The notes beneath the pieces were generated by a model. The model saw only the letters and a program-made list of their open reading frames with translations. It was not told the origin of the DNA and made no database searches. A stretch of 64,000 nt of DNA, from contig OZ241857.1 of assembly GCA_965203315.1 (NCBI GenBank), positions 480,001 through 544,000 of the forward strand, written 5' to 3'. Numbering within the stretch: the stretch's first letter is position 1; every line of letters begins with the position of its first letter. Position numbers and translations under genes: made by a program. This document shows, one piece after another, positions 5,212 through 58,265 of this stretch. This DNA is from Nitrosopumilus sp. GTDB taxonomy: Archaea; Thermoproteota; Nitrososphaeria; Nitrososphaerales; Nitrosopumilaceae.

Positions 5212-5272
5212 TGAACCATATTGCATATCCTACTGTACGATCCTAGTTCAAGGAGTGTAGGCTGAGTGTAAC
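5212..5272 (+). promoter_or_regulatory. Pseudoknot leader motif copy 1
   Basis: tgaac-cat-long stem; hairpin tcct-agttca-agga whose loop pairs with tgaac. Confidence 0.6.
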
Positions 5273-5285
5273 AATTGAAAAAAGC

Positions 5286-5894
5286 ATGAGCGACGAAAAA
5301 ACCAACAGACTATCTCGTAGAGAACAGATTCGCAAGTCTCTCAGAGACAATACAAAGTATACGTCGATTCTAACTGCAGGTGTATCGGCACTTGTGATGG
5401 GAGTTATGGCACTACTTGTAACTCCACCAGAACAAGATGCATATGCGCTAGCAATCATGGGAATCGGCATATCCTTTATTATCGCAAGTATCGTAGGGCT
5501 GATAATGGCATCGCAGACAGATGAGATTGCAGCTCGTATTTATGAGCGATTCGACAGACAAGATGAATTAGCAGAGAGACGTCATCAAGAGATGATATCA
5601 GTACTCAAAGAGATATCCAATAAACTAGACGCATTAGACAAGCTAGACAAGCTAGATGTCATGGATAGTAAACTGGACGTCATAGTCAACAACACCACCA
5701 AACTGGATGTCATAGTCAACAAACTAGACACCATAGACAACAACACCACCACCAAACTGGATGTCATAGTCAACAAACTAGACACCATAGACAACAACAC
5801 CACCACCAAACTGGATGTCATAGTCAACAAACTAGACACCATAGACAGTAAACTAGACACCATAGACAACAACACTAGACCATCTAATGCGTAG
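5286..5894 (+). CDS. 2TM + coiled-coil repeat protein, tandem copy 1
   Basis: Two hydrophobic helices then KLDVIVNKLDTIDNNTTT repeats. Confidence 0.85.
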   Translation: MSDEKTNRLSRREQIRKSLRDNTKYTSILTAGVSALVMGVMALLVTPPEQDAYALAIMGIGISFIIASIVGLIMASQTDEIAARIYERFDRQDELAERRHQEMISVLKEISNKLDALDKLDKLDVMDSKLDVIVNNTTKLDVIVNKLDTIDNNTTTKLDVIVNKLDTIDNNTTTKLDVIVNKLDTIDSKLDTIDNNTRPSNA

Positions 5895-6003
5895 CAAAAA
5901 ACCCAAAATCTTTTTTCTCGACTGAGACGTAAATCCCAAACCCGCATGGAATTTCTAATTTCCCCACACACTAGACTCAGCTAGGCAGGGTGTGCGGATT
6001 AAC

Positions 6004-6066
6004 TGAACCATATCTCATATTCCTGTACGTATAATCTAGTTCAGAGAGTACCAGGTTGAGTGAGAC
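6004..6066 (+). promoter_or_regulatory. Pseudoknot leader motif copy 2 (repeated at 6768-6830 and 7478-7540)
   Basis: tgaac-cat-tctca..cctgtac / gtaccagg..tgaga stem with an agttca loop. Confidence 0.55.
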
Positions 6067-6079
6067 AATTGAAAAAAGC

Positions 6080-6658
6080 ATGAGCGACGAAAAAACCAAC
6101 AGACTATCTCGTAGAGAACAGATTCGCAAGTCTCTCAGAGACAATACAAAGTATACGTCGATTCTAACTGCAGGTGTATCGGCACTTGTGATGGGAGTTA
6201 TGGCACTACTTGTAACTCCACCAGAACAAGATGCATATGCGCTAGCAATCATGGGAATCGGCATATCCTTTATTATCGCAAGTATCGTAGGGCTGATAAT
6301 GGCATCGCAGACAGATGAGATTGCAGCTCGTATTTATGAGCGATTCGACAGACAAGATGAATTAGCAGAGAGACGTCATCAAGAGATGATATCAGTACTC
6401 AAAGAGATATCCAATAAACTAGACGCATTAGACAAGCTAGACAAGCTAGATGTCATGGATAGTAAACTGGATGTCATAGTCAACAAACTAGACACCATAG
6501 ACAACAACACCACCACCAAACTGGATGTCATAGTCAACAAACTAGACACCATAGACAACAACACCACCACCAAACTGGATGTCATAGTCAACAAACTAGA
6601 CACCATAGACAGTAAACTAGACACCATAGACAACAACACTAGACCATCTAATGCGTAG
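6080..6658 (+). CDS. 2TM + coiled-coil repeat protein, tandem copy 2
   Basis: Same N-terminus as copy 1 from ATG 6080; 192 aa. Confidence 0.85.
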   Translation: MSDEKTNRLSRREQIRKSLRDNTKYTSILTAGVSALVMGVMALLVTPPEQDAYALAIMGIGISFIIASIVGLIMASQTDEIAARIYERFDRQDELAERRHQEMISVLKEISNKLDALDKLDKLDVMDSKLDVIVNKLDTIDNNTTTKLDVIVNKLDTIDNNTTTKLDVIVNKLDTIDSKLDTIDNNTRPSNA

Positions 6659-6843
6659 CAAAAAACCCAAAATCTTTTTTCTCGACTGAGACGTAAATCC
6701 CAAACCCGCATGGAATTTCTAATTTCCCCACACACTAGACTCAGCTAGGCAGGGTGTGCGGATTAACTGAACCATATCTCATATTCCTGTACGTATAATC
6801 TAGTTCAGAGAGTACCAGGTTGAGTGAGACAATTGAAAAAAGC

Positions 6844-7368
6844 ATGAGCGACGAAAAAACCAACAGACTATCTCGTAGAGAACAGATTCGCAAGTCTCTC
6901 AGAGACAATACAAAGTATACGTCGATTCTAACTGCAGGTGTATCGGCACTTGTGATGGGAGTTATGGCACTACTTGTAACTCCACCAGAACAAGATGCAT
7001 ATGCGCTAGCAATCATGGGAATCGGCATATCCTTTATTATCGCAAGTATCGTAGGGCTGATAATGGCATCGCAGACAGATGAGATTGCAGCTCGTATTTA
7101 TGAGCGATTCGACAGACAAGATGAATTAGCAGAGAGACGTCATCAAGAGATGATATCAGTACTCAAAGAGATATCCAATAAACTAGACGCATTAGACAAG
7201 CTAGACAAGCTAGATGTCATGGATAGTAAACTGGATGTCATAGTCAACAAACTAGACACCATAGACAACAACACCACCACCAAACTGGATGTCATAGTCA
7301 ACAAACTAGACACCATAGACAGTAAACTAGACACCATAGACAACAACACTAGACCATCTAATGCGTAG
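6844..7368 (+). CDS. 2TM + coiled-coil repeat protein, tandem copy 3
   Basis: Same N-terminus from ATG 6844; one 54-bp repeat fewer than copy 2; 174 aa. Confidence 0.85.
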   Translation: MSDEKTNRLSRREQIRKSLRDNTKYTSILTAGVSALVMGVMALLVTPPEQDAYALAIMGIGISFIIASIVGLIMASQTDEIAARIYERFDRQDELAERRHQEMISVLKEISNKLDALDKLDKLDVMDSKLDVIVNKLDTIDNNTTTKLDVIVNKLDTIDSKLDTIDNNTRPSNA

Positions 7369-7533
7369 CAAAAAACCCAAAATCTTTTTTCTCGACTGAG
7401 ACGTAAATCCCAAACCCGCATGGAATTTCTAATTTCCCCACACACTAGACTCAGCTAGGCAGGGTGTGCGGATTAACTGAACCATATCTCATATTCCTGT
7501 ACGTATAATCTAGTTCAGAGAGTACCAGGTTGA

Positions 7534-7857
7534 GTGAGATATTTGGTGTATGGAATGCCATCCCAAATAGCAAGCGTAGGCGTGATTACGCATGACCGAG
7601 AGAACAAACTCGGTAAACAAATGTGCGCAGATATTCAAGTAGAATATCGGTGTAGAGTCAGCTGTGACGGTAGTTATGGAATGCTCGACATGTATGATAT
7701 CGAGTGTGATGACTGCATGACCAGATGCGAGTCTACATACACGATTCTCTTATTCGATGTGATAAGAGATGACGATTCAGCACTCCTAGCTCGATATCAA
7801 ACTAGAATCGAACTAGCACGACTAAGGCGCATACTAGATTTACTAGAACGAATATAG
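7534..7857 (+). CDS. Hypothetical Cys-containing protein
   Basis: CRVSC and CDDC motifs; follows leader copy 4; true start may be ATG 7555. Confidence 0.6.
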   Translation: MRYLVYGMPSQIASVGVITHDRENKLGKQMCADIQVEYRCRVSCDGSYGMLDMYDIECDDCMTRCESTYTILLFDVIRDDDSALLARYQTRIELARLRRILDLLERI

Positions 7858-8079
7858 TCTATGTAAATACTAGTCAAACCAATTTTTTCCTCTATTTTCT
7901 TTGAGGCTTGTACATCTGATGAGATATCATGTGAGTGGTTGTATATTGTTGATTCCACATTACATCTTTTGAAAGATCAGCGTGTTTACCAATCTTGTAG
8001 AACGAGATACAGATTGGTTATTTCATCTGATGATAAACTAGGACATCAAACAAGGTGTCAGTCCCAGAGGGACGAAAAA

Positions 8080-8138
8080 TAGCCATGTCTCATACTCCTA
8101 TCATTTCGAGCCAAGCTAGTGGCGATAGGTTGAGAGAG
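8080..8138 (+). promoter_or_regulatory. Pseudoknot leader motif copy 5
   Basis: tagc-cat-stem; hairpin gcca-agctag-tggc whose loop gcta pairs with tagc. Confidence 0.6.
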
Positions 8139-8155
8139 AAGTGCAGGTGATTGCT

Positions 8156-8326
8156 ATGCAGTTAGAAAGCGTAGATACACTCGTTTACGACGAGTATAAA
8201 CCGCTTGAGGGCTATGCCGTAACGTGCACGTCTTGTGGTTCTGAAGCAGAAGTACATACGCGCAAAAAGACGGGGCAGTCTTTTAGATGCTTTGTCTGTG
8301 AACCACGACGTACACGATTCGGCTAG
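8156..8326 (+). CDS. Small Zn-ribbon protein
   Basis: CTSC...CFVC; AGGTGA RBS before ATG 8156. Confidence 0.65.
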   Translation: MQLESVDTLVYDEYKPLEGYAVTCTSCGSEAEVHTRKKTGQSFRCFVCEPRRTRFG

Positions 8327-8534
8327 TTTCCGAGTTCACACATAGTGTGATGATTGACCAATACAAGATATTATATCTCGTAATTGTTACTACACATCTG
8401 TTAGTCACAAGTATAATATCACGTTTGGTTTAACCCATGTATTTTTTTAAAAATACAAAATAGTTTCCAAATCTACTATACCTAAATGGTTAGCTCGATG
8501 TAGATTTGAAACAGTCGTCTGAGATATCAGATAG

Positions 8535-8627
8535 AGAGACATGTGCCACAAGTATAGAAGGTACAAATGTACACGCGAGTCACCGCTGCTCGGCGGGCGT
8601 CTATACTGTGTGGATATAAAAAGGAGG
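8535..8627 (+). promoter_or_regulatory. Pseudoknot leader motif copy 6 plus RBS
   Basis: ccaca-agtataga / tctatact-gtgtgg stem; hairpin ccgc-tgctcg-gcgg; GGAGG at 8623. Confidence 0.65.
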
Positions 8628-8634
8628 AATCCAA

Positions 8635-9903
8635 ATGAGCAAATTACACACAATCGTTGGTTTCAAACAGACCAACAAAGTTGTTCATAAATTGAACAGC
8701 AAAGCTGTTTCCAATGGAAGCAGAATAGTCTTGAATAGAGACTATCAAAAGAGTACACGCAAAAACTATAAGAGAATTGGCAAGAAAGAGCAATTCGACA
8801 TACCTGAACAGAAACTGTTGCAAAAGATGCAAAAGTTTCTCTACCAAAATACAACGTACAGAGGCAAACCACGCAAGATCGTCTACAACAAGATAACCAA
8901 AGAGGATAGAATGGTCATAGTGTTTTCTATAAAGGTCACTCTACAGTATGATCCGCCATCGATATGGGCCATAAAGATATTTGATCAGAGTGATCACATA
9001 GTACACTATGAAGAAGAAAAGCCAGTAGAGACATTCAAGGTTATAGTAGGTGTATATGATCAAAGCAAGCTGTACTGTATGCGTACTAGAAAGTTTAGAA
9101 TGCCGACAAAATATGACAAAGTATATGATCCAAACGATCTAGTCAGTATACGTGACAGTCACTTATGTACATCCTGCAACAGATGGTACAAGAGTCCCGA
9201 TTCAGACAAGTGTTTCTGTGGCACTCCACTAAAAAAGATAGAAAGAGTATGTCACAAAGACAACATACAGTATGATGATGAATATTTGATCGAAAAGAGA
9301 TGTCTGCAAGAGATCGAGTATCAATCTGTCGCACCGCGTCGCAGATCATCTAATCGTAGAACAACTGATAGTGAGTTTGTACCACAGTACACAACAAATA
9401 CAGTACTAGACCACTTGGACATAGAACTAGAAGATGAACCACCAGTACCGCTAACAGTACAACAGAGTGCCGCACAGAACAAGCTAGATTACATCTGGAA
9501 CAAGAACTGCGTTCTAGGAAAGACGTGCATCATAAAGCAGTACGGCGAATACAAGATGTCACCTGATCCCGAAAATCAGCAAGCACTACGTTCGCACATA
9601 TACAACTGTACAAAAGATCCAAATCGCAATCTGTTCGATGTTGTAGTTGATGAGACCGAGTCTGTAAAAACGTCCACGATATCATCTACAGATTCACAAC
9701 CAGATCTATATCACAGAGACCCAGAAAAGATAAGAAACGATCTAGTTACACACGACTTTGAACTATCTCAAGATGAGATCGAACTGCTAGATGTACCATA
9801 CTGTACACTAGACTGTGATGGTAAAAACAGATTTTGGAACCTAGTCAACAAGGCTCGTCGCAACCAGAAACAGTTCAACGTTGTATACAAACTTGTACAA
9901 TAG
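8635..9903 (+). CDS. Hypothetical protein with internal Zn ribbon
   Basis: 422 aa, strong RBS, CTSC..CFCG motif. Confidence 0.75.
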   Translation: MSKLHTIVGFKQTNKVVHKLNSKAVSNGSRIVLNRDYQKSTRKNYKRIGKKEQFDIPEQKLLQKMQKFLYQNTTYRGKPRKIVYNKITKEDRMVIVFSIKVTLQYDPPSIWAIKIFDQSDHIVHYEEEKPVETFKVIVGVYDQSKLYCMRTRKFRMPTKYDKVYDPNDLVSIRDSHLCTSCNRWYKSPDSDKCFCGTPLKKIERVCHKDNIQYDDEYLIEKRCLQEIEYQSVAPRRRSSNRRTTDSEFVPQYTTNTVLDHLDIELEDEPPVPLTVQQSAAQNKLDYIWNKNCVLGKTCIIKQYGEYKMSPDPENQQALRSHIYNCTKDPNRNLFDVVVDETESVKTSTISSTDSQPDLYHRDPEKIRNDLVTHDFELSQDEIELLDVPYCTLDCDGKNRFWNLVNKARRNQKQFNVVYKLVQ

Positions 9904-9948
9904 AGATGGCGTGTATCTCAAACCCACATCCCATTTTTGAGGATAAAA

Positions 9949-10770
9949 ATGAGTCAAGTAAGAACCTCTGAGAAAGCCAGAGAGATACTAGTCGAACTAG
10001 CAGAAAAGTTCGGCAAGACCGAATTCGTAGACAGTTCGGCCAAGATGTTGATAGATGCTCGTACATATGCAAAGCCATCGAGCTCATGGTCATTGGGTAA
10101 TCAACTAGCAATGTACTTTGGTGGTACCATGGATGCAAGAGGATACAATCAATGGAACGCAGTAGGACGACATGTCAAGAAAGGAGCAAAGGCAATCTAC
10201 ATTCTAGGTCCAATGACTAGAAAGATCGAGCCCAAGGAGGGTGAAGACGAACGAATCATAATAACTGGATTTAGAGCGATACCCGTATTCCGATTCGAAG
10301 ATACAAAAGGTAAACCACTAAAAGAGTACAAACCCAAGACACTTCCACCGTTGTATCATCTAGCAGAAGAGAATGATATCAAGGTAGAGTATATCGAATC
10401 TAGACATGGTGAATATGGTTCGATACACATTCCAACAAAGAACATGACGCTGAGTACAGAGTCGCCGGATACGTTCTTGCACGAACTGATGCATCTATAC
10501 GACAACAAGAGTCAAGAACTGAAACCAGGACAAGACCCCATACAAGAGACTGTAGCACAGCTTGGTGCATGTGTTCTAGCCAAGATGTATGGATATGACG
10601 TAGAGGCACATACATGGAACTATATCTCAGCATATGCGGGTTCAAAAGATCCCAAAGCTGTTGGCAACATGTGCTTCAAGGTATTACAACGTGTTCAGCT
10701 AGCAATAAACAAGATACTAGATGATGCACAAGAACTGAAACCAATCGAGGCAAGTATAACAAAGATGTAG
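9949..10770 (+). CDS. ArdC-like ssDNA-binding/antirestriction protein with zincin-like domain
   Basis: WSLGNQL..RGYNQWNAVGRHVKKGAKAIYIL..FRAIPVFRFEDTKG (ArdC N-domain pattern) and HELMH. Confidence 0.85.
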   Translation: MSQVRTSEKAREILVELAEKFGKTEFVDSSAKMLIDARTYAKPSSSWSLGNQLAMYFGGTMDARGYNQWNAVGRHVKKGAKAIYILGPMTRKIEPKEGEDERIIITGFRAIPVFRFEDTKGKPLKEYKPKTLPPLYHLAEENDIKVEYIESRHGEYGSIHIPTKNMTLSTESPDTFLHELMHLYDNKSQELKPGQDPIQETVAQLGACVLAKMYGYDVEAHTWNYISAYAGSKDPKAVGNMCFKVLQRVQLAINKILDDAQELKPIEASITKM

Positions 10771-11133
10771 TGTATCATGTACTATATCTGATATTGTACA
10801 CACAATATCACAAAACATGATAGTGGTGTACGGCACACCATCTTTACAAAAAAATGTTGAGATACTTTTGATACCAAAAGTATACTCCAGGAAAATCCCC
10901 TGATGATTTCACCAATTATGTAATTGGTGAATGCTCAAAATGTCTTGTAATAACAAACATTTTGGGTTGGCTCTGTCCTGTATGGGCATTGCCGAAACTA
11001 TACTCGTTAGTACGAGTATGGTCGGGAAGATGGAATCAAAAAACATTTGAACATAAATTGTGCTGTATATCGAGTACACTAATTTCAAATGTAAACGATA
11101 TAATTCGCTGGTACGGCGAGTATTCATCTTTTC

Positions 11134-11214
11134 AGAGTCATGCGCCACAGATGCAGCTAGTACCATAGCGCTGCAACTCTGCAGAGCTGTATCGTGTGGT
11201 TTTCCAAAAGGAGG
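11134..11214 (+). promoter_or_regulatory. Pseudoknot leader motif copy 7 plus RBS
   Basis: agagt-cat; ccaca-gatgcagct / agctgtatc-gtgtgg; hairpin ctgc-aactct-gcag with loop complementary to agagt. Confidence 0.7.
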
Positions 11215-11220
11215 AATAGT

Positions 11221-11343
11221 ATGAGTACAAAATCTACAATAAAAGACACTAGATTGGAGCGCCGCGTAGATGGGCGTTATGAGACTCTGGTGCAGATCAA
11301 ATTGTTGAACAATTCAAACATTCTCATAAGATATGAGATATGA
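11221..11343 (+). CDS. 40-aa small protein
   Basis: GGAGG RBS; stop overlaps next start (ATGA). Confidence 0.55.
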   Translation: MSTKSTIKDTRLERRVDGRYETLVQIKLLNNSNILIRYEI

Positions 11344-11606
11344 GCCATGAAAAGTTCACGCCTAAAGACTTGACAATAATCCCAAAGGATTGTAGTGTAT
11401 GTGATGGGTGTAACAAACAACTTACGGATGAAAACTTTGTTGCGATTCAAGACTGTGTGTGGTTTGAAGGATATCTGTACTGTCAAGGTTGTGAACAGAG
11501 ATACAGGCCAAAAGATGTTGGCTTGTCACTAATTAAACGTATCTGTATGGGTGATGATCTATCCGATACAGAACTTGCAAAACCAATAGTGATAGAGTCA
11601 TGGTAA
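11340..11606 (+). CDS. Small Zn-finger protein
   Basis: CDGC...CQGC. Confidence 0.7.
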   Translation: MSHEKFTPKDLTIIPKDCSVCDGCNKQLTDENFVAIQDCVWFEGYLYCQGCEQRYRPKDVGLSLIKRICMGDDLSDTELAKPIVIESW

Positions 11607-11667
11607 TAGCACATAATGTCGTTGTAAACACAATCTACAAATCTAAAAACCAACTTGATACAACAGC

Positions 11668-11883
11668 TTGTACGTATACACAATGACTGCAGTAGAGAAG
11701 GCAATAGAGTTGCTAGAGGGGCACCCATTCTATAACGTCCTAGTTGAATATGTTGCAACAAAAGCCACAAGATATACTCAAGCAAAGATCATATTTGACA
11801 AGAGACTTGGAGCAAGTTCAGGAACAGAAAATATGATACGTGATGCAGTATTTGATGCATTAAAACAGAGGCATGTGAGATGA
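11668..11883 (+). CDS. Hypothetical protein
   Basis: Co-oriented; stop overlaps nuclease start. Confidence 0.6.
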   Translation: MYVYTMTAVEKAIELLEGHPFYNVLVEYVATKATRYTQAKIIFDKRLGASSGTENMIRDAVFDALKQRHVR

Positions 11884-12470
11884 GATTTCGATATGGGACT
11901 ATTGGTGTTGTTGTGTTGTGTATGGGGCTAGTATTATTTGCAGCTAGTGTATTACCAAACTATCAATCAAACATAGATAAAGCCACAAACGAGATATCTG
12001 GCATAGATAGAACAACACCAAACGTTGAATCAAGTCAGGATAAAACACCAAACACCAACATCAATATAGATAGAACAACAAACATCGAAACAGATATCAC
12101 AGAACGAGATACCAGCTGCTCAATGTGTTATACGGGTATCGTAACTAGAATAGTTGACGGAGATACAATTCATGTAGATGATAATATAATACGACTTGCG
12201 ATGGTCGATACTCCTGAACGAGGTGAGTCAAACTATGCTGCCGCAACTGCACATACTAGATCTACATGCCCTATTGGTACAACAGCACTAGTTGATATAG
12301 ATGATCTGCAGATACAAGATCGTTATGGCAGACAGATAGCAAAGGTGACTTGCAGCGGTACAATACTGAACGAATCACTACTAGTATCAAATCTCGCAGA
12401 CGTGTATCACTACTTTTGTTCAAGGTCAGAGTTTGCGAGTGAACCTTGGTTGAACAACGAATGCACATAG
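11880..12470 (+). CDS. Secreted/anchored thermonuclease (SNase family)
   Basis: N-terminal hydrophobic helix; VTRIVDGDTI, IRLAMVDTPE, DRYGR motifs. Confidence 0.92.
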   Translation: MRFRYGTIGVVVLCMGLVLFAASVLPNYQSNIDKATNEISGIDRTTPNVESSQDKTPNTNINIDRTTNIETDITERDTSCSMCYTGIVTRIVDGDTIHVDDNIIRLAMVDTPERGESNYAAATAHTRSTCPIGTTALVDIDDLQIQDRYGRQIAKVTCSGTILNESLLVSNLADVYHYFCSRSEFASEPWLNNECT

Positions 12471-12482
12471 GATCAGTATCAT

Positions 12483-12625
12483 AGACTGTATGCGTATTTC
12501 TTGTATCTTACGCACATTTTAAGATACAATAAAACACGGGTGTAATTTCTAGAGGCAAATTGATTCATTGTTATCGTGTTTGATGATTGGACATAGGCAC
12601 ACCCTTAATAATACGCATACAGTCT
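12483..12625. mobile_element. MITE, about 143 bp (family 1)
   Basis: TIR agactgtatgcgtatt; homologous copies at 21470, 47563, 55596. Confidence 0.85.
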
Positions 12626-12626
12626 C

Positions 12627-12938
12627 ATGAATGAGATAACTAGCATAGTCGAGATGATAAAACACAAGGCAACCACACATATCTTGAGTGAAGTCAATTG
12701 GTATGAGATATCTCAGAGATACAAAGATGACATTCAAGAGCTAACAGACAAAGTCAAAGAGGAACAAGAATCGCTCCGCGAAGATATAGAATATCAGACA
12801 AGAGAACTAGAAGATGTACTGGAACAGCTGTTAAACCTCTTTGCACATCAGAACAGATGGAATACAATACAACGTCAAGTAAAAAATGACTTGGAGAATA
12901 GTACACAGCGAGTCTACAATCTAGACCAAAAGGACTAG
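12627..12938 (+). CDS. Coiled-coil hypothetical protein
   Basis: 103 aa; 5' end abuts the MITE, so it may be truncated. Confidence 0.6.
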   Translation: MNEITSIVEMIKHKATTHILSEVNWYEISQRYKDDIQELTDKVKEEQESLREDIEYQTRELEDVLEQLLNLFAHQNRWNTIQRQVKNDLENSTQRVYNLDQKD

Positions 12939-13077
12939 CACGCCAAAGTGTAGAGACGCTATCTCTTGCGCAATCAGTATCCTACTGCATAATATCATAT
13001 GATATCACATGATATCGTACTAGGACTGCTGCTCGGCAGGATTGCATGCGAAGAGATTCTTACAAGGAGGTGAAAGT
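12922..13077 (+). repeat. Dispersed ~145-bp intergenic repeat / leader copy 8
   Basis: tagaccaaaaggactagcacgccaaagtg...ctgc-tgctcg-gcag...GGAGG. Confidence 0.9.
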
Positions 13078-13674
13078 ATGAGAATAAGAAAGAGTATCTC
13101 AAACAAGATACAATCCTTTAGCGAGTCTATTGCTAAAGAGACTGTATATAGGATCGTGATGTTTGCAGGAATAGCTCTAACTGGATATGGAATTTATCTA
13201 CAAGACATAGCAATAATCATATCTGGATCAGCTTTAATAACTGCAAGTGTCATAGGTATAGTAATGTCTATGCAGACCAACAAGATTGCACATACTATCT
13301 ATGAGCGATTTGATAGACAAGATAAATTGGCGGATATGCGCCACAAAGAGACAATATCAGTACTAAAAGAGATGATGTCAGTACTAAAAGAGATAGTTAC
13401 ACTGCTAAAAGATAGCAAAGAATGTAACGAAAGAATGAGTCAAACACTAGACAGAATCGACAAAAACACAAGTAAACTAGACAGAATCGACAAAAACACA
13501 AGTAAACTAGACAGAATCGACAAAAACACAAGTAAACTAGACAGAATCGACAAAAACACAAGTAAACTAGACAGAATCGACAAAAACACAAGTAAACTAG
13601 ACAGAATCGACAAAAACACAAGTAAACTAGACAGAATCGACAAAAACACAAGTAAACTAGCTGAGAAACTGTAA
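13078..13674 (+). CDS. 2TM + coiled-coil paralog with 7 x 30-bp tandem repeat (LDRIDKNTSK)
   Basis: GGAGG RBS; perfect 30-bp repeats at about 13447-13656. Confidence 0.85.
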   Translation: MRIRKSISNKIQSFSESIAKETVYRIVMFAGIALTGYGIYLQDIAIIISGSALITASVIGIVMSMQTNKIAHTIYERFDRQDKLADMRHKETISVLKEMMSVLKEIVTLLKDSKECNERMSQTLDRIDKNTSKLDRIDKNTSKLDRIDKNTSKLDRIDKNTSKLDRIDKNTSKLDRIDKNTSKLDRIDKNTSKLAEKL

Positions 13675-13817
13675 TAGACCAAAAGGACTACACGCCAAAG
13701 TGTAGAGACGTTATCTCTTGCGCAATCAATATCTTACTGTATAATATCGTATAATATCGTACTAGGACTGCTGCTCGGCAGGATTGCATGCGAAGAGATT
13801 CTTACAGGAGGTAAGAG
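13675..13817 (+). repeat. Dispersed intergenic repeat / leader copy 9
   Basis: Near-identical to 12922-13077. Confidence 0.9.
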
Positions 13818-13906
13818 ATGAAAGAAAAAGATACTGGCAAAGTGCCAGATTGGATAGGTATGCCAGAACGTGTACCTTGTAGGCAACTATATCGGAATAG
13901 AACAAG

Positions 13907-14335
13907 ATGAATCGAGAAAGAACGTTAGAGAACATCCGTCGTCTCGGTAATACGTTAGCAAAGAATCAACTGTATACCGCAATATTGATGATCGGTACTG
14001 GTATGCTCACATCAGCTCTTGTTATTGATGATACACTCTTGTTATCGATAGGAATATCCTTTATAATTGCGAGTGTCGTAGGAATAATAATGGCATGGCA
14101 GACCAAAGAGATTGCAGCTGATCTACATCAACGATTTGATAGAATAGAAGATATTCTAAAGTCGAACCATAAAGAAGCTATGCACAACCATAAAGAGACT
14201 ATGAATAATCATAAAGAAGCTATGCAAAAACACAACGAAACCATATCTATTCTGAACAAGATGGTTGTTGTACTTGAACAAATCAAGACAGAGCTTAGAG
14301 AGATCAAAGAATCAAGTAAACCAGAAAAGAGATAG
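13907..14335 (+). CDS. 2TM + coiled-coil paralog
   Basis: IGISFIIASVVGIIMAWQT..IA..RFD family motif; preceded by 30-aa ORF 13818-13910. Confidence 0.85.
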   Translation: MNRERTLENIRRLGNTLAKNQLYTAILMIGTGMLTSALVIDDTLLLSIGISFIIASVVGIIMAWQTKEIAADLHQRFDRIEDILKSNHKEAMHNHKETMNNHKEAMQKHNETISILNKMVVVLEQIKTELREIKESSKPEKR

Positions 14336-14478
14336 ACCAAAAGGACTAGCACGCCAAAGTGTAGAGCCGTTATCTCTTGCGCAATCAGTATCCTACTGTA
14401 TAATATTGTATAATATCGTACTAGGACTGCTGCTCGGCAGGATTGTATGCGAAGAGATTACCTATGGAGGTAGGAAAT
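14333..14478 (+). repeat. Dispersed intergenic repeat / leader copy 10
   Basis: Same repeat ending GGAGGtaggaaat-ATG. Confidence 0.9.
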
Positions 14479-14661
14479 ATGAAAACAAAGAGTATTCCGA
14501 GTGTAAAATCACTCTGGCGCTGCCCCATGTGTGCAGCAAAAACAGCCCTCGATATAGAGGGCAAATTAGGACAGACAAAGAGATTTGATTGTTCTAGATC
14601 AGATTGTTGGAACAAAGTCCAACATTGCGTAAAAAACAAAGAGATAGAAAATGTCGTATAG
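14479..14661 (+). CDS. Small Zn-finger protein
   Basis: CPMC...CSRSDC; RBS supplied by the repeat. Confidence 0.7.
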   Translation: MKTKSIPSVKSLWRCPMCAAKTALDIEGKLGQTKRFDCSRSDCWNKVQHCVKNKEIENVV

Positions 14662-14953
14662 TCATCTAACACTTGAGAATCTACCACAAGTGTGGGAGTA
14701 CATCAAGAAGACAAGAGACTGCAAAGATGCAATACTAGGTATTCATTTACCTTGCGAAAATGTTACTGAAATAGAGATAGATGACTTTGTAGACCTGTTA
14801 AAGATGGTCATGCAAAAGTATGATGACCACGCAAACATTACAGTCAATGCTTCGATTGGGGTCGATTGTGATTGTGGTACACAACATCTAGTTCCAATGA
14901 ATAACATTGTCGAGTACATAGAGAAATACTATAACAAGGCAATAGAGGCATGA
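14651..14953 (+). CDS. Hypothetical protein
   Basis: Overlapping operon-like gene string. Confidence 0.7.
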   Translation: MSYSHLTLENLPQVWEYIKKTRDCKDAILGIHLPCENVTEIEIDDFVDLLKMVMQKYDDHANITVNASIGVDCDCGTQHLVPMNNIVEYIEKYYNKAIEA

Positions 14954-15405
14954 AGATAAAATACTACAACCATACCGTATGTCTAGAAGACTATGACCCA
15001 GAATATAATGCAGTTGGAGAGTTATCAGATGGTCATCCAGATCCAAATCAAGAACATACTTGGGAATCAGAGAGAGATCTAATAGACTGGAACATGAATT
15101 GGATAGAAGGACTCTACAAAGAGATGTGGCGACTAACAAGTCTCTGTGATACCAAAAAAGCAATATGGAAGGCCTATACAAGTTGGCAAGATGCGATACA
15201 CTACACACAAGAGATAGTAAATCACATACGAGATGTAACAGCAAGTAGAGATCCAGACTATAAAGAAGACAATCCAGAACTAAAAGAGATCAATGACTGG
15301 TACACAATGTGCCAAAAATGTATGAAACAGACAACGTTCTACATGCAAGACGAGACCAACTGTGGAACTTGGTATTGCAGCGTATGCAAACACATGAAAA
15401 CATAG
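14950..15405 (+). CDS. Hypothetical protein with C-terminal Zn ribbon
   Basis: CQKC...CSVC; ATGA overlap. Confidence 0.7.
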   Translation: MKIKYYNHTVCLEDYDPEYNAVGELSDGHPDPNQEHTWESERDLIDWNMNWIEGLYKEMWRLTSLCDTKKAIWKAYTSWQDAIHYTQEIVNHIRDVTASRDPDYKEDNPELKEINDWYTMCQKCMKQTTFYMQDETNCGTWYCSVCKHMKT

Positions 15406-15416
15406 GAGGTAACAAA

Positions 15417-15635
15417 ATGACCAACGAATGTGTATCCTGGCATGTAAAGATAGAACGTGCTGGTGATGATAGAGAACCATGTACGCGATGTCATACACCA
15501 TTTGATGATCCAAATGGAGAGGCATGGGTACTAGTTGTAGAGCAAGATGGACTGTGTCAAGAGTCCAAAGCACAATGTGAGAAATGTATGAGAAAGTTCA
15601 TGAAAGAAGCCCAGGAAGCAGATGAACATGAATGA
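15417..15635 (+). CDS. Small Zn-finger protein
   Basis: GGAGG RBS; CTRC...CEKC. Confidence 0.7.
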   Translation: MTNECVSWHVKIERAGDDREPCTRCHTPFDDPNGEAWVLVVEQDGLCQESKAQCEKCMRKFMKEAQEADEHE

Positions 15636-15843
15636 GTTAGAAAAACTAGCAATCCAACTGGATCAGAAACTACGAGCGCTAGAATGGGAAGAGAATAGAT
15701 TTCAAGAACTCAAACTAGACTATCGTGCAGATAGTAAAGTAGCGAGTATATTTCTCAGACTACACCAAGTAAGAGACGAATTAGCAGAACTAACCCCTGA
15801 TGACTATGAATCATGCAACATACGGTGGAGAGATATAGAATGA
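15622..15843 (+). CDS. Small coiled-coil hypothetical protein
   Basis: Coupled ORF in operon. Confidence 0.65.
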   Translation: MNMNELEKLAIQLDQKLRALEWEENRFQELKLDYRADSKVASIFLRLHQVRDELAELTPDDYESCNIRWRDIE

Positions 15844-16058
15844 CATTCTCAAACCCATATTGGAATCTACGTGTATTACACGCCAAAGACGGATCAGGCT
15901 GGACAAACGTTGGATTTGAGAGCTATGATGAAGTTATAGAACATATGCACAAACTCAAAGAAAAACACGCACCTCTGATATACTGTATAGAGAGAATAGA
16001 CGATTACGGCACAGAATACGTAAAGAAAACGATCCTAGAGTGTGAGGAATTGCACTGA
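15840..16058 (+). CDS. Hypothetical protein
   Basis: ATGA overlap; further small coupled ORFs follow (16058-16156, 16156-16323). Confidence 0.6.
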   Translation: MTFSNPYWNLRVLHAKDGSGWTNVGFESYDEVIEHMHKLKEKHAPLIYCIERIDDYGTEYVKKTILECEELH

Positions 16059-16480
16059 TGAAATATATAGAATGTAAACAATGCGATAAATCTATGGAAG
16101 AACACTGTGATTTCGTAGAGTTCTGTTCAGAAATGCTGTCTAGAGTATATGGTTGATGAAAATAACGGACATGGACATCTGTTTTATCTCTCTTGATGAA
16201 TCAGGAGAGATCAAAACAAAAAACATAGATTTAGGCAAACTAGAAGACATCAAGACAGAACAAGAATTTAAAGACAAGATAAAGGCAGAACTCGAGTCAG
16301 ACATAGTAGATGATAATGACTGAACTCGAAAATATGTGTACCGAGCTAGAGTATAGCTTGAAAAACATAGGCTTCCAAAAAGATAGATTCTACAAAAAAG
16401 GGGATCTGATACAAAGAATGATGATAGGAATAGTATTCCAAAACATCGAACAATCTAGAGATACTTGTCAGGTCTAACAG

Positions 16481-16777
16481 GTGAATATCATGAATAAAAC
16501 CATGTCAATGCTCTTTGAAACAAGTATCAAAAAATGGCGACATCCAGTGAAACAAGACAAATTCTCCGATAGGTTTCAGGAATGGGTAAAAATTATAAAC
16601 CCTGATTATGTCTATCAAGAAATTCAACGACAGATAGCAATGTCTAATGAAAATATAGCAAATCGTCAAGAAGAACTAGAAACCGCATTAAAGAACTTGG
16701 ATACAGCCATTAGTGAGCGAGAATATTGGTTACATTGCAGATACATCTATGAAAACTCGGTGATGTGTAGTGACTGA
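16481..16777 (+). CDS. Hypothetical protein
   Basis: Co-oriented ORF overlapping the next gene. Confidence 0.6.
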   Translation: MNIMNKTMSMLFETSIKKWRHPVKQDKFSDRFQEWVKIINPDYVYQEIQRQIAMSNENIANRQEELETALKNLDTAISEREYWLHCRYIYENSVMCSD

Positions 16778-17102
16778 GTTAGACCTAACCAAACTCGGAT
16801 ACAGAGAGATAGCAATAGTAAGAGACTTGTTAGGTTGTGTAATGAATAACAGATACACACACCTTGCCAAAGCAAACTTTGATGACTCTCAAATCAAAAT
16901 AGGAATAGATATAGACAAATGTGTATTTCTGTTTAACGAAGATGGTAAAGTCCTAGTAGAATACAACAACAAACTACATCTGGTCGTAACATGTTCTGAA
17001 TGTGGTAACGAAGCAATAGAGACGGACTGGGTACCAGAAAAAAACTGCAAAACCTGTCAAGTGATATCTGAATTCTATGCACTGTATGACCACTATTCAT
17101 AA
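16770..17102 (+). CDS. Hypothetical protein with Zn ribbon
   Basis: CSEC...CKTC. Confidence 0.7.
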   Translation: MTELDLTKLGYREIAIVRDLLGCVMNNRYTHLAKANFDDSQIKIGIDIDKCVFLFNEDGKVLVEYNNKLHLVVTCSECGNEAIETDWVPEKNCKTCQVISEFYALYDHYS

Positions 17103-17114
17103 CACTTCAAGGCA

Positions 17115-17486
17115 ATGACTAAAAGTACATACAATAGATACAAAACTCTCAAAAACGTATTCATAAAGCAACCATTCTATACCATGATGCTTGCATTTGG
17201 TATATTTGGAATGTTTGCATCAGAGTGGAACATATACCAAGATCCAAATCTGCTACTCACGATTGGCATAGCTTTTATTAGTTCAAGTGTGGTAGGACTA
17301 GTTATGGCTTGGCACAGTGATAGAATAGCAAGTACATTGCATGAGCGATTTGATGAACAGAACGAGATCATGAAGTCAAATCACAAAGAGAGTATGTCTG
17401 TACTCAACAAGATGGTCGATGTACTTGAGCAAATCAAAACAGAGCTTAAAGAGATCAAAGAATCAAGTAAACCAGAAAATAGATAG
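17115..17486 (+). CDS. 2TM + coiled-coil paralog
   Basis: IGIAFISSSVVGLVMAWHS..IA..ERFD; C-terminus near-identical to 13907-14335. Confidence 0.85.
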   Translation: MTKSTYNRYKTLKNVFIKQPFYTMMLAFGIFGMFASEWNIYQDPNLLLTIGIAFISSSVVGLVMAWHSDRIASTLHERFDEQNEIMKSNHKESMSVLNKMVDVLEQIKTELKEIKESSKPENR

Positions 17487-17634
17487 ACCAAAAGGACTAG
17501 CACGCCAAAGTGTAGAGCCTTTATCTCTTGCGTAATCAATATTCTGTGTACAATATACGATATACGATATTGTACAACAGAACTGCTGCTCGGCAGGATT
17601 GTATGTGAAGAGATTCCCTATGGAGGTAGGAAAT
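17484..17634 (+). repeat. Dispersed intergenic repeat / leader copy 11
   Basis: Same repeat with different but still paired inner arm tgtacaatat/atattgtaca. Confidence 0.9.
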
Positions 17635-18540
17635 ATGAACAAAAATATGAATGGCTCATCAGAGCCAATACAGAACATTCGTGTTCTACCAATAAATCCG
17701 GTGGAGTTTATTCCAAGGAATGTCCCACGATTTATTGAGACTCGTAACGAGTCTGCAAGACTCCAAGTTGCAATGGAGTCAACTGATCCGCTACTTTTGG
17801 TTGGACCAAAAGGAATCGGAAAGACACTCTGCATTGATGCATTTGCAGCAAAGCTCAATGTACCGCTGATTCGATATGACTGTTCAGATGGTACGAAAAA
17901 GTTTGATCTCTATGGACGATTTACTATAATCGGACATGAGACGGTGTACAAACCCGGCATACTAGCTACTGCTATAGAGACAGCAAACCAGTTCGGTACA
18001 GCCGTTCTAGTACTAGAAGAGGTAAATGCGCTAAACGGTGCAATGCAAAAGGTACTGAACTCGCTATTAGATTATCGTCATTCGTTGATGATAGAAGAGT
18101 TGAACAAGGTGTATTCATTGAGAGATGGTGCCAATCTCTTGATATGTGCTACAATGAATCCCAGTACGTATGGTGGCACAAACGAACTGAACGAAGATCT
18201 AAAGTCTAGATTTGCCATCTGGAAGTGGAAGTATCCTGAAGAGAATGAAGAACGTGAAATACTCAACACACAAGGTATCCCAGAGTTGTTTGTAACTCGA
18301 ATGTTACAGTTTGCTCAAGATACGAGAAATACTGCAGCTGCAGGAAAGATAGAATATGCGCTATCACCACGTGATCTAGACATGTTCTTTAGACGATACC
18401 GCATATATCTTGGCAGACCAGAGTTTGGACTCGATACCGTATTTGAAGAGTGCATCTTGAACAAGTATGATGCGGCATCAGATATAGAGTATATCAACGA
18501 TCGAAGACAGTCTATATTTGGCAAGGATGTATCAAGATAA
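17635..18540 (+). CDS. MoxR/CbbQ-type AAA+ ATPase
   Basis: Walker A GPKGIGKT, Walker B VLEEVN, ATMNP sensor, DLKSRF Arg finger. Confidence 0.92.
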   Translation: MNKNMNGSSEPIQNIRVLPINPVEFIPRNVPRFIETRNESARLQVAMESTDPLLLVGPKGIGKTLCIDAFAAKLNVPLIRYDCSDGTKKFDLYGRFTIIGHETVYKPGILATAIETANQFGTAVLVLEEVNALNGAMQKVLNSLLDYRHSLMIEELNKVYSLRDGANLLICATMNPSTYGGTNELNEDLKSRFAIWKWKYPEENEEREILNTQGIPELFVTRMLQFAQDTRNTAAAGKIEYALSPRDLDMFFRRYRIYLGRPEFGLDTVFEECILNKYDAASDIEYINDRRQSIFGKDVSR

Positions 18541-20285
18541 TGTCTGTTATGATAGAGCGATATGAAAAAACTGCAAATATAGTAAACAACATCAAAGGTA
18601 CCAAGTTTACTCTACTGTGCGGTGATGGTAGAGATATCTTGTGGAAGAATAGCGAGATCATGATAACTGACAAAGATACACTGACCAATCTAGAGCACTC
18701 ACTAGCTCACATCATGTATGATTCTAGAGCACCAACAAACAGTACAATCATCGAGATAACAAAGACAGATCAAGGACATGATGGCTCGGCATTCTTTAAG
18801 GAGATATTCTATACACTAGAAGCAGAGCGAGTCGAGAGTAATTGGGGTGAGATATACTATGGTTCACATCAAGAGTTTGAACGACAGAGAAGTGAACGTG
18901 GTACAATGGATAGTGGTGAACTCGATCCAATGCGTGCAATACAGTTTGCTAGAAACGGTAGTATCGGCAAACTAGAGGGTACACAGTACGAGCAAGCCAT
19001 ACAATACATCAATACTGTACACGGTATGGACAGCAAGGTATCACTCAAGCTTGCCATAGAATACTATGAAAAATATGTCAAGGATTGGCTAGATGTACAA
19101 ATATCAAAGATACGAGAAGAGCATTTAGAGAAACTCGTACAGAGAATAAAAGATCACTTTGAAGAACAGATAGAGGAACAAAAGAGAGAGCTAGATAGAA
19201 CTGGAGATAAAAATGTACGGAAACGCATAAACGAGTTGTACAAAGACATGAGCAATACAATAGAGAACAAGACCATACATGACATACGCATATCTAGCTG
19301 GGATGTAGAAAATATCTTGAAAGACTATTCGACGAGAACACGTCAGGAATGTCATGAGAATAGTCCTAAAAAGTTGTCCAAGAGTACTGTACAAAGTATT
19401 CAAAAGAGAGATATGGACTCTTTGGTCAAACAAGGCAAGAAAGCAACTGCAAAGATCAATAGTAAGATCAAAGAGATCAATCGTCCTGTACAACCCAAAC
19501 TTGCAAACCTTGCAGAAAAGATACATGTCTCGAATAGACCTGAAGAAGAATATACCATAGATTATGAGACATCATACAGATTGCGCAAGTTGATCAACGA
19601 GGTTAAAGCAAGTCGTACACAAGTATACGACATGCAAGGAAATATGATAGATGTTGATGAGTATATCCAAGATATCATCAATACCAAACAAGGTATCTAT
19701 TGGGAAGACGAAGAACCTAGTAAGGGACTAGCTATTGTAATTGGCATAGATTGTTCAGGTTCTATGCCAGATGGTGCAATGCAGGCTTGTCGAGACATGT
19801 GTGCTACAATACTATACGCAACCCAGCGACTCAAAGATGTAGCAATAACATTTGTACCATGGAGTACAAGTAACAGTCGACACGATTTGTACGCCAACGA
19901 GTTTACGACACTAGACGAGATCAAATGCATATCAAAGAACTATGAGCCACAAAATGCCAATGATCTAGCACATCAATATCTAGACAGAGTCATCGCGAAG
20001 AGCAATGCCGTAAATAAAGTCATCATAATGATGACTGATGGTGAACCATACTGTCATGGAATAGATCCAAATGTGCTCTTTGCAAATACTGTAGAAGCAA
20101 TAAGACAGAGTAAGTTGAGAGGCAATCTAGTGTATGGCGTATTTCTGAACTTTGGCGCCAACGAAGATAGGGCAAAAAAGATGGCAGGCATGTATCGTAG
20201 TAACTTTGTATCGTGCAATACAATGAACGATGCAAGCAAGGCTGTCATCGAACTGACCCAGAATCACATCTTGAGAGCTATCTAG
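18540..20285 (+). CDS. vWA-domain partner of the MoxR ATPase
   Basis: MIDAS DCSGS...MTDGEP; N-terminal LEHSLAH/EAERVE metallopeptidase-like segment. Confidence 0.88.
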   Translation: MSVMIERYEKTANIVNNIKGTKFTLLCGDGRDILWKNSEIMITDKDTLTNLEHSLAHIMYDSRAPTNSTIIEITKTDQGHDGSAFFKEIFYTLEAERVESNWGEIYYGSHQEFERQRSERGTMDSGELDPMRAIQFARNGSIGKLEGTQYEQAIQYINTVHGMDSKVSLKLAIEYYEKYVKDWLDVQISKIREEHLEKLVQRIKDHFEEQIEEQKRELDRTGDKNVRKRINELYKDMSNTIENKTIHDIRISSWDVENILKDYSTRTRQECHENSPKKLSKSTVQSIQKRDMDSLVKQGKKATAKINSKIKEINRPVQPKLANLAEKIHVSNRPEEEYTIDYETSYRLRKLINEVKASRTQVYDMQGNMIDVDEYIQDIINTKQGIYWEDEEPSKGLAIVIGIDCSGSMPDGAMQACRDMCATILYATQRLKDVAITFVPWSTSNSRHDLYANEFTTLDEIKCISKNYEPQNANDLAHQYLDRVIAKSNAVNKVIIMMTDGEPYCHGIDPNVLFANTVEAIRQSKLRGNLVYGVFLNFGANEDRAKKMAGMYRSNFVSCNTMNDASKAVIELTQNHILRAI

Positions 20286-20308
20286 AATATACGAGTACGA
20301 GATCAGGA

Positions 20309-20430
20309 TAGACCAAAAGGACTAGCACGCCAAAGTGCAGAGCCGTTATCTCTTACGCAATCAATATCTCATTTGAGACCATGGCTCGATGGGATTGCGT
20401 ATGTGGAGATTCTCACAAGGAGGTGAAAGT
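20309..20430 (+). repeat. Dispersed intergenic repeat / leader copy 12 (divergent)
   Basis: Short inner arm; hairpin ccat-ggctcg-atgg replaces ctgc-tgctcg-gcag. Confidence 0.85.
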
Positions 20431-20826
20431 ATGAGAATAAGAAAGAGCATCTCAAACAAGATACAATCCTTTAGCGAGTCTATTGCTAAAGAGACTGTAT
20501 ACAGGATCGTAATGTTTGCAGGAATAGCTCTAACTGGATATGGGATTTATCTACAAGACATAGCAATAATCATATCTGGATCAGCTTTAATAGCTGCAAG
20601 TGTCATAGGTATAGTAATGTCTATGCAGACCAACAAGATTGCAGGTAATCTTTACAATCGAATTGACAAACAAACTGCACTCTTGGAATCAAGCCTCAAC
20701 AAGATGGTTGCTGTACTAGAACGAATGGACAAGAAACTGGACAAATTAGACACAATAGATACAAAGCTGGACAAATTAGACACAATAGATACAAAGCTGG
20801 ACAATATAGACAAGAAAATGGACTAG
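20431..20826 (+). CDS. 2TM + coiled-coil paralog
   Basis: First ~70 aa near-identical to 13078; LDKLDTIDTK repeats. Confidence 0.85.
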   Translation: MRIRKSISNKIQSFSESIAKETVYRIVMFAGIALTGYGIYLQDIAIIISGSALIAASVIGIVMSMQTNKIAGNLYNRIDKQTALLESSLNKMVAVLERMDKKLDKLDTIDTKLDKLDTIDTKLDNIDKKMD

Positions 20827-20953
20827 CACGCCAAAGTGTAGAGCCGTTATCTCTTGCACAATCAATATTCTGTGTACAGTATACCATACTGTACAACAGG
20901 ACTGCTGCTCGGCAGGATTACATGCGAAGAGATTCTTACAGGAGGTAAGAGAT
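20821..20953 (+). repeat. Dispersed intergenic repeat / leader copy 13
   Basis: gactagcacgccaaagtg...ctgc-tgctcg-gcag...GGAGG. Confidence 0.9.
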
Positions 20954-58246: not shown

Positions 58247-58265
58247 CCTAATAGTTTTATATAAA

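Follow-up and report, generated by a model that had tools for sequence, protein, structure and literature searches.

The 5' hairpin of ompA and the RNase III sites of phage T7 are simple mRNA hairpins which are either cut by RNase E or RNase III or are protective; we know of neither enzyme in the archaea treated here. In the exonuclease-resistant RNAs (xrRNAs) of flaviviruses and plant viruses, located in 3' untranslated regions or between genes, the 5' end pairs with bases of a junction and a ring is formed around it. STAXI (RF01728), an enterobacterial element composed of two or three tandem pseudoknots, has been described with no function assigned (Weinberg et al. 2010, PMC2864571). We have analysed 64,000 nt of DNA from Nitrosopumilus sp. 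(assembly GCA_965203315.1, a 2.47-Mb genome; GC 0.386), namely positions 480001–544000 of contig OZ241857.1, hereafter the window, in which a folded element recurs directly upstream of 13 genes. Judged from its sequence, this element is a real, structured and uncatalogued leader module, so far confined to one island, and it is probably pseudoknotted. The genome encodes archaeal AmoA and no McrA, and the host is therefore an ammonia-oxidising archaeon.

The 13 copies (c1–c13) all lie on the coding strand, and the enclosing stem (P1) ends 14–21 nt 5' of a start codon in every one of them. Each begins with a 5-nt segment (S1), followed by a C-N-T linker, the 5' strand of the long bulged P1, an optional arm, a short hairpin (P3) and, directly after P3, the 3' strand of P1. 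S1 starts at 5212, 6004, 6768, 7478, 8079, 8535, 11134, 12952, 13704, 14363, 17514, 20339 and 20840; copy coordinates were set by script and the sequence was also read directly. The linker is CAT in c1–c7 and CGT, CGC or CTT in the last six copies, the E repeats, which begin approximately 30 nt before S1, at 12922, 13675, 14333, 17484, 20309 and 20821. P3 consists of 4 bp and a 6-nt loop, but of 3 bp and a 7-nt loop in c2–c4. The units are single, one per gene, and 450–3300 nt apart; the E copies begin at the stop codon of the preceding gene, and elements are found per cistron, the interiors of apparent operons included. The original prediction, made from the letters and their open reading frames (ORFs), had placed 13 copies with this layout at these sites, seeing in them a fold of the mRNA-sense strand that directly precedes the start codons. 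All are present, and the minimum-free-energy folds of the 13 copies with their flanks agree with it, each giving a long stem around a short hairpin. The P3 stems that it listed (TCCT/AGGA, GCCA/TGGC, CCGC/GCGG, CTGC/GCAG and CCAT/ATGG) were likewise all recovered, as were its pairs between loop and S1 (TGAAC:GTTCA, TAGC:GCTA, AGAGT:ACTCT and GAGC:GCTC).

The first four copies are of the A type. Copy c1 (5212..5271, + strand) has S1 TGAAC, linker CAT, P1a TTGCA/TGTAA, P1b CCTAC/GTAGG and P3 TCCT-AGTTCA-AGGA, and precedes a gene of what we term the P family, with its start codon at 5286. In c2 (6004..6065, +) the S1 pairing is (C)TGAAC:GTTCA(G), P1a is TCTCA/TGAGA and P1b is CCTGTAC/GTACCAGG, and the ATG is at 6080. 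Copy c3 (6768..6829, +; ATG 6844) is identical to c2 through a tandem gene duplication, while c4 (7478..7546, +) equals c2 except at its 3' edge, where P1 is extended (ATATCTCA/TGAGATAT), and stands before a Cys-rich ORF with an in-frame ATG at 7555. Copy c5 (8079..8139, +) pairs S1 as (A)TAGC:GCTA, has P1b CCTATC/GATAGG and P3 GCCA-AGCTAG-TGGC, and is followed by a 56-amino acid zinc-ribbon-like ORF (ATG 8156). In c6 (8535..8613, +) S1 is AGAGA, P1 is CCACAAGTATAG/CTATAC-T-G-TGTGG with a bulged G, the arm is GTAC-AAAT-GTAC and P3 is CCGC-TGCTCG-GCGG; AGGAGG and a 422-amino acid ORF (8635–9903, +) follow, with the ATG at 8635. Copy c7 (11134..11199, +) pairs S1 as (C)AGAGT:ACTCT(G), has a P1 of 13 bp, again with a bulged G, and P3 CTGC-AACTCT-GCAG, and is followed by AGGAGG and an ATG at 11221.

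The E repeats, all on the + strand, are longer. The first, c8 (12922..13077), carries a small hairpin in its conserved upstream part, S1 AGAGA at 12952, P1 ATCTCTTGCGCAATC/GATTGCATGCGAAGAGAT ending at 13057, a palindromic A/T-rich arm, P3 CTGC-TGCTCG-GCAG and a Shine-Dalgarno hairpin, TTAC-AAGGAG-GTGA, before the ATG at 13078. In c9 (13675..13817) S1 is AGAGA at 13704, P1 ends at 13799 and the Shine-Dalgarno hairpin is CTTAC-AGGAG-GTAAG (ATG 13818); in c10 (14333..14478) the corresponding features are AGAGC at 14363, 14458 and CCTAT-GGAG-GTAGG (ATG 14479). Copy c11 (17484..17634) has S1 at 17514 and a P1 with three G-U pairs ending at 17614, and precedes the ATG (17635) of a MoxR-like ATPase. 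In c12 (20309..20430) the arm is replaced by TCTCA-TT-TGAGA and P3 is CCAT-GGCTCG-ATGG, in front of a P-family ATG at 20431. The last, c13 (20821..20953), has S1 at 20840, P1 ending at 20933 and the Shine-Dalgarno hairpin CTTAC-AGGAG-GTAAG (ATG 20954).

The layout alone is not beyond chance, since a loose descriptor, which asks for a 4-bp hairpin enclosed by a stem of at least 9 pairs, was satisfied at 140 sites (+ strand) and 121 sites (- strand) in the whole window; 26 and 20 of these, respectively, also had an upstream complement of at least 4 nt. What exceeds chance is covariation in P3, the base of the arm and part of P1. In the E family 96.4% of 168 cells are paired, and both sides have changed in 8 of 28 pairs, as compared with 2.8 +/- 1.4 in column shuffles; one shuffle in 500 reached this count, and sliding the partners by 1–3 columns left 0–1. 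These double changes fall in P3 and the arm base, with one in P1 plus several G-U pairs. In P3 of c12, CCAT/ATGG stands for the CTGC/GCAG found elsewhere in E, three pairs being altered on both sides. Between families the pattern is the same: c6 and c7 have unrelated inner P1 sequences, both paired, with a G bulged at the same spot, and P1a and P1b pair in c1 as well as in c2, even though these two copies are alike at only 44 of 67 aligned columns. The coding sequences that follow c1 and c2 are 99% identical. Overall, P3 exists in five versions and P1 in three, and the only unpaired bases conserved across the three families are the C-N-T linker and the bulged G.

The second line of evidence is the complementarity between S1 and the P3 loop. 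The register was anchored on structure, the base before the linker being matched to loop position 2 and each base further 5' to the following loop position. Counted by lineage, 21 of 25 cells between S1 and loop positions 2–6 are Watson-Crick pairs across five lineages in one fixed register, a score reached by 2 of 120 loop permutations and by none of 20,000 draws of random 5-mers from the window. Four of the five pair positions have been altered on both sides between lineages. By copy, the pairing is complete (5/5) in c1, c2 and c7, 4/5 in c5 and c10–c13, and 3/5 in c6, c8 and c9. With a looser 10-nt window, the per-copy chance is 0.003–0.07 for the first two groups and 0.30 for the third. 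The register was picked after viewing the data, which makes the chance figures somewhat optimistic; the complementarity is real despite this.

Much of this could in principle arise in DNA. Leaders may have been duplicated together with P-family genes by recombination, their inverted repeats being kept or re-created by quasi-palindrome correction or hairpin-mediated template switching, with no function as RNA. Such a history would suit the fact that 10 of the 13 copies flank a P-family gene, the several arms that are perfect palindromes without G-U pairs, and the frequency of the loose layout by chance. It would also suit the breakpoints of near-identity among the tandem paralogues: the 99% identity of c1 and c2 starts at 5259, c2 and c4 part at approximately 7540, and both points coincide with the 3' edge of the leader P1, leader and gene having therefore recombined as separate modules. 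We nevertheless regard such an origin, with no role as RNA, as unlikely, given that all 13 copies point the same way and keep a constant distance from the start codon, that the E helices hold seven G-U cells, that the S1-loop complementarity crosses the other helices in one register in five lineages, and that the Shine-Dalgarno hairpin covaries too.

The copies amount to approximately 11 distinct paralogues within one island and fall into three sequence families: the A type (c1–c4) with c5, c6 with c7, and E. Covariance models were built from the six E copies (R1) and from c1, c2, c4 and c5 (R2). R1 matches c7 over the full model (24.1 bits, E 7e-4), matches c6 weakly and out of register (14 bits, E 0.31), and finds none of c1–c5; R2 matches c1–c5 only. 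A MAFFT alignment of all three families was inconsistent with structure, and RNAalifold on the A5 set gave P3 only; cross-family pairs were put in register by structure with a script. Of the predicted '13 copies with covariation', therefore, the covariation holds and the number shrinks to some 11 distinct paralogues in three families that the models do not unify.

The sequence between the fold and the start codon supplies a third argument. GGAGG is present there in 8 of the 13 copies and matches the 3' end of the host 16S rRNA (...GGATCACCTCCTTTG), which ends in CCUCC. Elsewhere in the host GGAGG is scarce, occurring at -22 to -3 in only 20 of 1228 long ORFs, and TATA-like hexamers peak at -28 to -30 from the ATG; on these two grounds host mRNAs look mostly leaderless. 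A second small hairpin displays the Shine-Dalgarno sequence in or beside its loop, with stems TTAC/GTGA, TCAC/GTGA, CTTAC/GTAAG and CCTAT/GTAGG, variants which argue for selection at the mRNA level right up to the start codon. The original prediction had appealed instead to G-T pairs as favouring the sense strand, and for this we found weak support: the raw folding energy is lower on the + strand in 11 of 12 copies and the E family has seven G-U cells against three A-C or C-A cells, whereas z-scores are better on the + strand in only 7 of 12. The constant position before the start codon, GGAGG with its 16S match, and the Shine-Dalgarno hairpin are better arguments for a role in mRNA than the G-T pairs.

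The P family consists of small membrane and coiled-coil proteins, in which two membrane helices are combined with a repetitive coiled coil, and matches no Pfam family above its cut-off. Seven paralogues are found in the island (5286–7368, 13078–14335, 17115–17486 and 20431–20826), and arrays of up to 13 copies occur elsewhere in the genus, in 15 of the 150 other genomes, chiefly the larger ones (2.0–2.8 Mb). The genes contain in-frame tandem repeats at 13446–13660 and at 5648–5880, the latter repeated at 6442–6644 and 7206–7354. Units of two lengths occur, 30 nt (in seven complete or nearly complete copies) and approximately 54 nt; they encode an LD-x-ID-type coiled coil, and the repeat copy number varies among the three tandem paralogues.

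Upstream of c1, a block at 5119..5211 (+) comprising GACTGGACA..., the palindrome CTCTT-GAAA-AAGAG, CCGACCAGCGGGT and GGGTGTGGAGAT is homologous to promoter/leader blocks of P-family genes in other genomes of the genus; equivalent blocks precede c2–c4 (approximately 5895–6003, 6659–6767 and 7369–7477). In these relatives the order is a T-run, GACCTGACAATCC..CCAAACC, a variable and covarying palindromic hairpin, (C)CGACTCAGCGGAT (or GACTCAGCGGAT) or CTGACAGGCAG, then GGGTGTGAGAT, in several leaders a short hairpin, and finally an A-run and the ATG. The island leaders c1 and c2 share the relatives' blocks (...CCAAACC, palindrome, GACTCAGCGGAT/CTGACAGGCAG, GGGTGTGAGAT) and the site before the A-run and ATG, and the A-type fold occupies exactly the site of the relatives' short hairpin, being approximately 47 nt longer. 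The relatives' leaders are single hairpins of approximately 15–20 nt with covarying stems (ATGC/GCAT, GTGC/GCAC, GTGT/ACAC and GATGC/GTATC) around TTGCG, as seen in genomes G468, G410, G308 and G009, to which the A type adds P1a, P1b and P3. By eye they show no S1-loop pairing, a possible exception being genome G382, where UCACA in the loop of the leader hairpin might base-pair with UGUGA in the last upstream block. Weaker versions of the block stand upstream of c5 and c6, and in our reading GTGTAGAGC of the E repeats resembles it. Neither R1 nor R2 gave anything significant for the motif over the relatives' P-family loci (L053–L069); the best match, at L067 (19.4 bits, E 0.009), and recurrent matches of 11–14 bits were rejected as the promoter/leader block.

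In some P-family paralogues the ATG falls where the last conserved block (GGGTGTG, at the position of GGGTGTGAGAT) lies. Because of these start codons and the TATA-to-ATG spacing of the host, transcription may start at the GGGTGTG block, as the arrangement suggests, 12–16 nt before S1 in c1 and c2. The repeats could alternatively act as double-stranded DNA, as a promoter with operators whose inverted repeats would be bound by a regulator of the island. The A/T-rich palindromes of c8–c11 and c13 and the TATAAT of c2–c4 do resemble host TATA words, and in the relatives, too, the conserved blocks before P-family genes are separated by a palindrome that varies. One would expect a protein-binding site to retain its sequence, whereas here pairing is kept while sequence changes, and the G-U pairs would be mismatches in duplex DNA; we therefore consider a control region of this type very unlikely.

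Copies of the element stand in sense, in 5' or intercistronic position, and contain helices with compensatory change, as would be expected of a structured cis-acting mRNA leader. The explanation we favour, which in our judgement has roughly an even chance of being correct, is that of a cis-acting module that stabilises mRNA and organises the translation of Shine-Dalgarno-dependent messages in a mostly leaderless host. In this scheme, P3 loop positions 2–6 would pair with S1 and tie the 5' tail into the fold, and each transcription unit or cistron would thereby receive a stable, standardised 5' structure. Its effect could be to shield the message against 5'-end-dependent decay and to keep the initiation of translation insulated. 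The end of the fold, 14–21 nt before the start, would leave the ribosome-binding region free, and the E copies would display it in the second hairpin. The fold would thus serve leadered, Shine-Dalgarno-dependent mRNAs in a host of the leaderless type, and perhaps doubles as a shared operator for an RNA-binding protein encoded by the element. That the module acts as RNA, and every functional step just given, we infer from sequence.

Several observations weigh against this explanation. The folding-energy z-scores are unremarkable (+0.29 to -4.07 on the + strand, with similar values on the - strand), modest and not clearly better on the + strand. DNA-level quasi-palindrome correction could mimic compensatory change in hairpins. 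As had been predicted for the AGAGA copies, c6, c8 and c9 have only three internal pseudoknot base pairs. The geometry is also awkward: only 3–6 nt separate S1 from the base of P1, 13–15 bp of P1 plus P3 have to be passed to reach the loop, and the 3' strand of P3 enters P1 without a linker, and for these reasons we estimate that a coaxial P1-P3 stack and the pseudoknot would be incompatible without a sharp bend or partial melting. By the same estimate, the pseudoknot would require a sharp bend at the bulges or junction, or else would alternate with the outer part of P1; the two are presumed to coexist. The E copies have no obvious upstream promoter, and some arms carry a TATA-like TATAATAT, from which a transcription start would drop half the fold from the RNA. 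Finally, all known copies are paralogues of one island: R1 and R2 found no copy in the rest of the genome, and R2 found none in 150 genomes of the genus.

The search of the genome and of the genus with covariance models, which the original prediction had envisaged, could thus be carried out and yielded no copy outside the island. R1 gave one weak match among the 150 genomes (G419, E 0.035), which lies in apparent coding sequence and is chance-like. Scans for DNA of related islands produced no match in genome, metagenome, viral-contig or phage collections, and among 400 genomes of the family the only match was in the genome of the window. Five viral contigs were matched by an 18-nt core taken from the E repeats; none of them has the fold (best R1 score 14 bits, E 0.17), and these matches were treated as chance. 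The 422-amino acid protein downstream of c6 has close relatives with 50% identity, and a VWA protein of the island (18540–20285) has relatives with 66%; for both proteins the relatives are on contigs with the same pair of lengths. More remote VWA homologues are present in six genomes of the genus, but the motif is absent from those six loci (best R1 E 0.82), and the repeats found there are unrelated.

In keeping with the original prediction, which could match the element to no known ribozyme or riboswitch, Rfam 15 gave no match at gathering score in the whole window, and at E<=10 over 3500–21500 it gave 38 weak matches, none covering a copy as such; mir-7360 (E 8.8) fell on the palindromic arm of c11, and most others were C/D-box models at 3774–4696. 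Text searches of papers on thaumarchaeal integrated elements (including PMC6563490) and on structured leaders turned up no description of the motif. Like STAXI, the island element is a repeated and probably pseudoknotted element of DNA with mobile traits. STAXI differs in its tandem units and enterobacterial hosts, whereas the island element is archaeal, occurs as single units, one per gene, and has no Rfam match; it works like STAXI at most and is not a member. STAXI lies near genes for Ssb, topoisomerase, anti-restriction proteins or integrase. Here one ArdC-like match under the Pfam cut-off is present, and a non-exhaustive Pfam scan of 40 ORFs gave no hit to Ssb, topoisomerase or integrase.

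Like the ompA and T7 hairpins, the element places a stable helix directly 5' of the ribosome-binding site, before many genes and always in sense; unlike them, it adds a probable 5'-tail pseudoknot and a three-way junction. Like an xrRNA it would hold the 5' tail by a pseudoknot in a helix-closed fold, a topology deduced here from base complementarity, although its 5' segment pairs with a hairpin loop. A catalytic or blocking RNA, whether a self-cleaving ribozyme, a nuclease processing site in polycistronic transcripts or an xrRNA-like exonuclease block, might be built in this manner, with a 5' tail that pairs into the loop inside P1. It would be in keeping with the occurrence of a single element at each cistron, even within apparent operons, with E copies at the preceding stop codon, and the lack of matches to known families leaves room for a new class. 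The few conserved unpaired bases, however, offer little for a catalytic core, and the ribozyme models of Rfam were silent at E<=10, so that we rate this possibility as quite unlikely. Its boldest version is a new class of 5'-tail-capturing pseudoknot, an 'expression cassette head' that would be either an archaeal counterpart of the xrRNAs or a new self-cleaving or processing motif, and with which the mobile element would run leadered, Shine-Dalgarno-dependent messages in a host geared to leaderless translation; to this we assign an equally small likelihood. No bulge-helix-bulge, k-turn, hammerhead, hepatitis delta virus (HDV)-like or pistol topology was seen on inspection by eye.

Two kinds of DNA element were considered and rejected. 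In the attC sites of integrons, the R''/R' core sites (RYYYAAC/GTTRRRY) pair at the base of the fold. In the island element AAC/GTT occurs in the A type only, where it is paired with the loop, and the other copies have TAGC/GCTA, AGAGT/ACTCT or GAGC/GCTC; the non-exhaustive Pfam scan of 40 ORFs also gave no integrase domain. A miniature inverted-repeat transposable element (MITE), marked by conserved terminal inverted repeats and a target-site duplication and dispersed through the genome in either orientation, would not explain why all 13 copies are in sense at a fixed distance from the ATG, with stems that differ and covary, no flanking duplication seen and no copy outside the island. In contrast, the island does contain a true MITE-like repeat at 12482–12625, also found at 21468–21574 and 47562–47668, with 16-bp terminal inverted repeats; in three DNA runs its contig depth is approximately 30-fold that of the flanking DNA. 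In run X1 a single contig links 12600 to 21470, between two of these copies. Over the motif copies themselves (7440–21500), DNA contigs of runs X1, X2, X4 and X7 match the window exactly.

In the region from approximately 4.7 to 23 kb almost every ORF lies on the + strand, and the region looks like a mobile element. Its genes include an ArdC-like N-terminal match at 9937–10770 (PHROG anti-restriction, E 7e-10; Pfam 20.9 bits, under the 22.6 cut-off), a staphylococcal-nuclease (SNase) homologue at 11880–12470, a MoxR-type AAA ATPase with the VWA protein at 17599–20285, and Eco57I-like methylase fragments at 21696–22692. Many small Cys-rich ORFs are also present, and small zinc-ribbon proteins are encoded by, for example, the ORFs that start at 8156, 11340 and 14479. 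An actin/ParM-like gene lies at 1602–2468 on the - strand, and IS630-like and IS4/5-like transposases are found past 24 kb of the window. These mobile traits (the ArdC-like match, SNase, MoxR-VWA, methylases and ParM-like gene) would suit a reading modelled on Frpo, a long imperfect hairpin, carried in the leading region of conjugative elements, whose stem re-forms promoter motifs. The + strand of the repeats could accordingly fold as single-stranded DNA during transfer or rolling-circle replication and serve as an Frpo-like promoter, or as a priming or recombination site. Complementarity alone cannot separate RNA from single-stranded DNA, and the same alternative was raised by the STAXI authors for their motif (PMC2864571). 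We hold a single-stranded DNA element to be highly improbable here. The 40 ORFs, in a scan that was not exhaustive, include no relaxase, rolling-circle Rep or transfer gene; 13 sites placed 14–21 nt before Shine-Dalgarno start codons do not fit the requirements of an origin or priming site; and the TATA-like arm is missing from c1, c5, c7 and c12. An Frpo-like promoter would in addition leave the 14–21 nt spacing, the Shine-Dalgarno sequences and the second covarying hairpin unexplained.

Other features of the window were noted in passing. The Eco57I-like DNA methyltransferase is represented by two neighbouring ORFs (21696–22178 and 22183–22692), a split probably caused by a stop or frameshift. 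Eight C/D-box small RNA (sRNA)-like genes are arranged in four tandem units of approximately 235 nt at 3630–4700; they show terminal stems, guides of 12 nt and the boxes C, D', C' and D. Their Rfam scores are under the gathering thresholds, the best being sR1 with 26.7 bits against 45. For five of the 15 guides, the rRNA operon (C1:295869–300486) contains an 11-nt complementary stretch with <=1 mismatch. That the guides target the leaders was rejected, there being no site with <=1 mismatch in 4701–23000 on either strand. Direct repeats, 74–97% identical and approximately 20 kb apart, pair 24061–24375 with 44677–44992 and 37842–38549 with 57565–58268, which suggests either a segmental duplication of greater extent or a pair of related elements in the later part of the window.

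To our knowledge, few structured RNAs have been catalogued from the phylum of this host, and we know of almost nothing on post-transcriptional control in ammonia-oxidising archaea and their mobile elements. The leader has a narrow distribution, being known from one island in the data examined, which restricts its significance, and its structural support is good for a set of paralogues without phylogenetic breadth. Within that frame, a leader fold set before 13 genes of one island is a compact and testable handle. It touches on how foreign leadered mRNAs may be stabilised and translated in a leaderless host, on whether archaeal mobile elements may use shared RNA operators, and on whether pseudoknots that would protect 5' ends exist outside the RNA viruses of eukaryotes.

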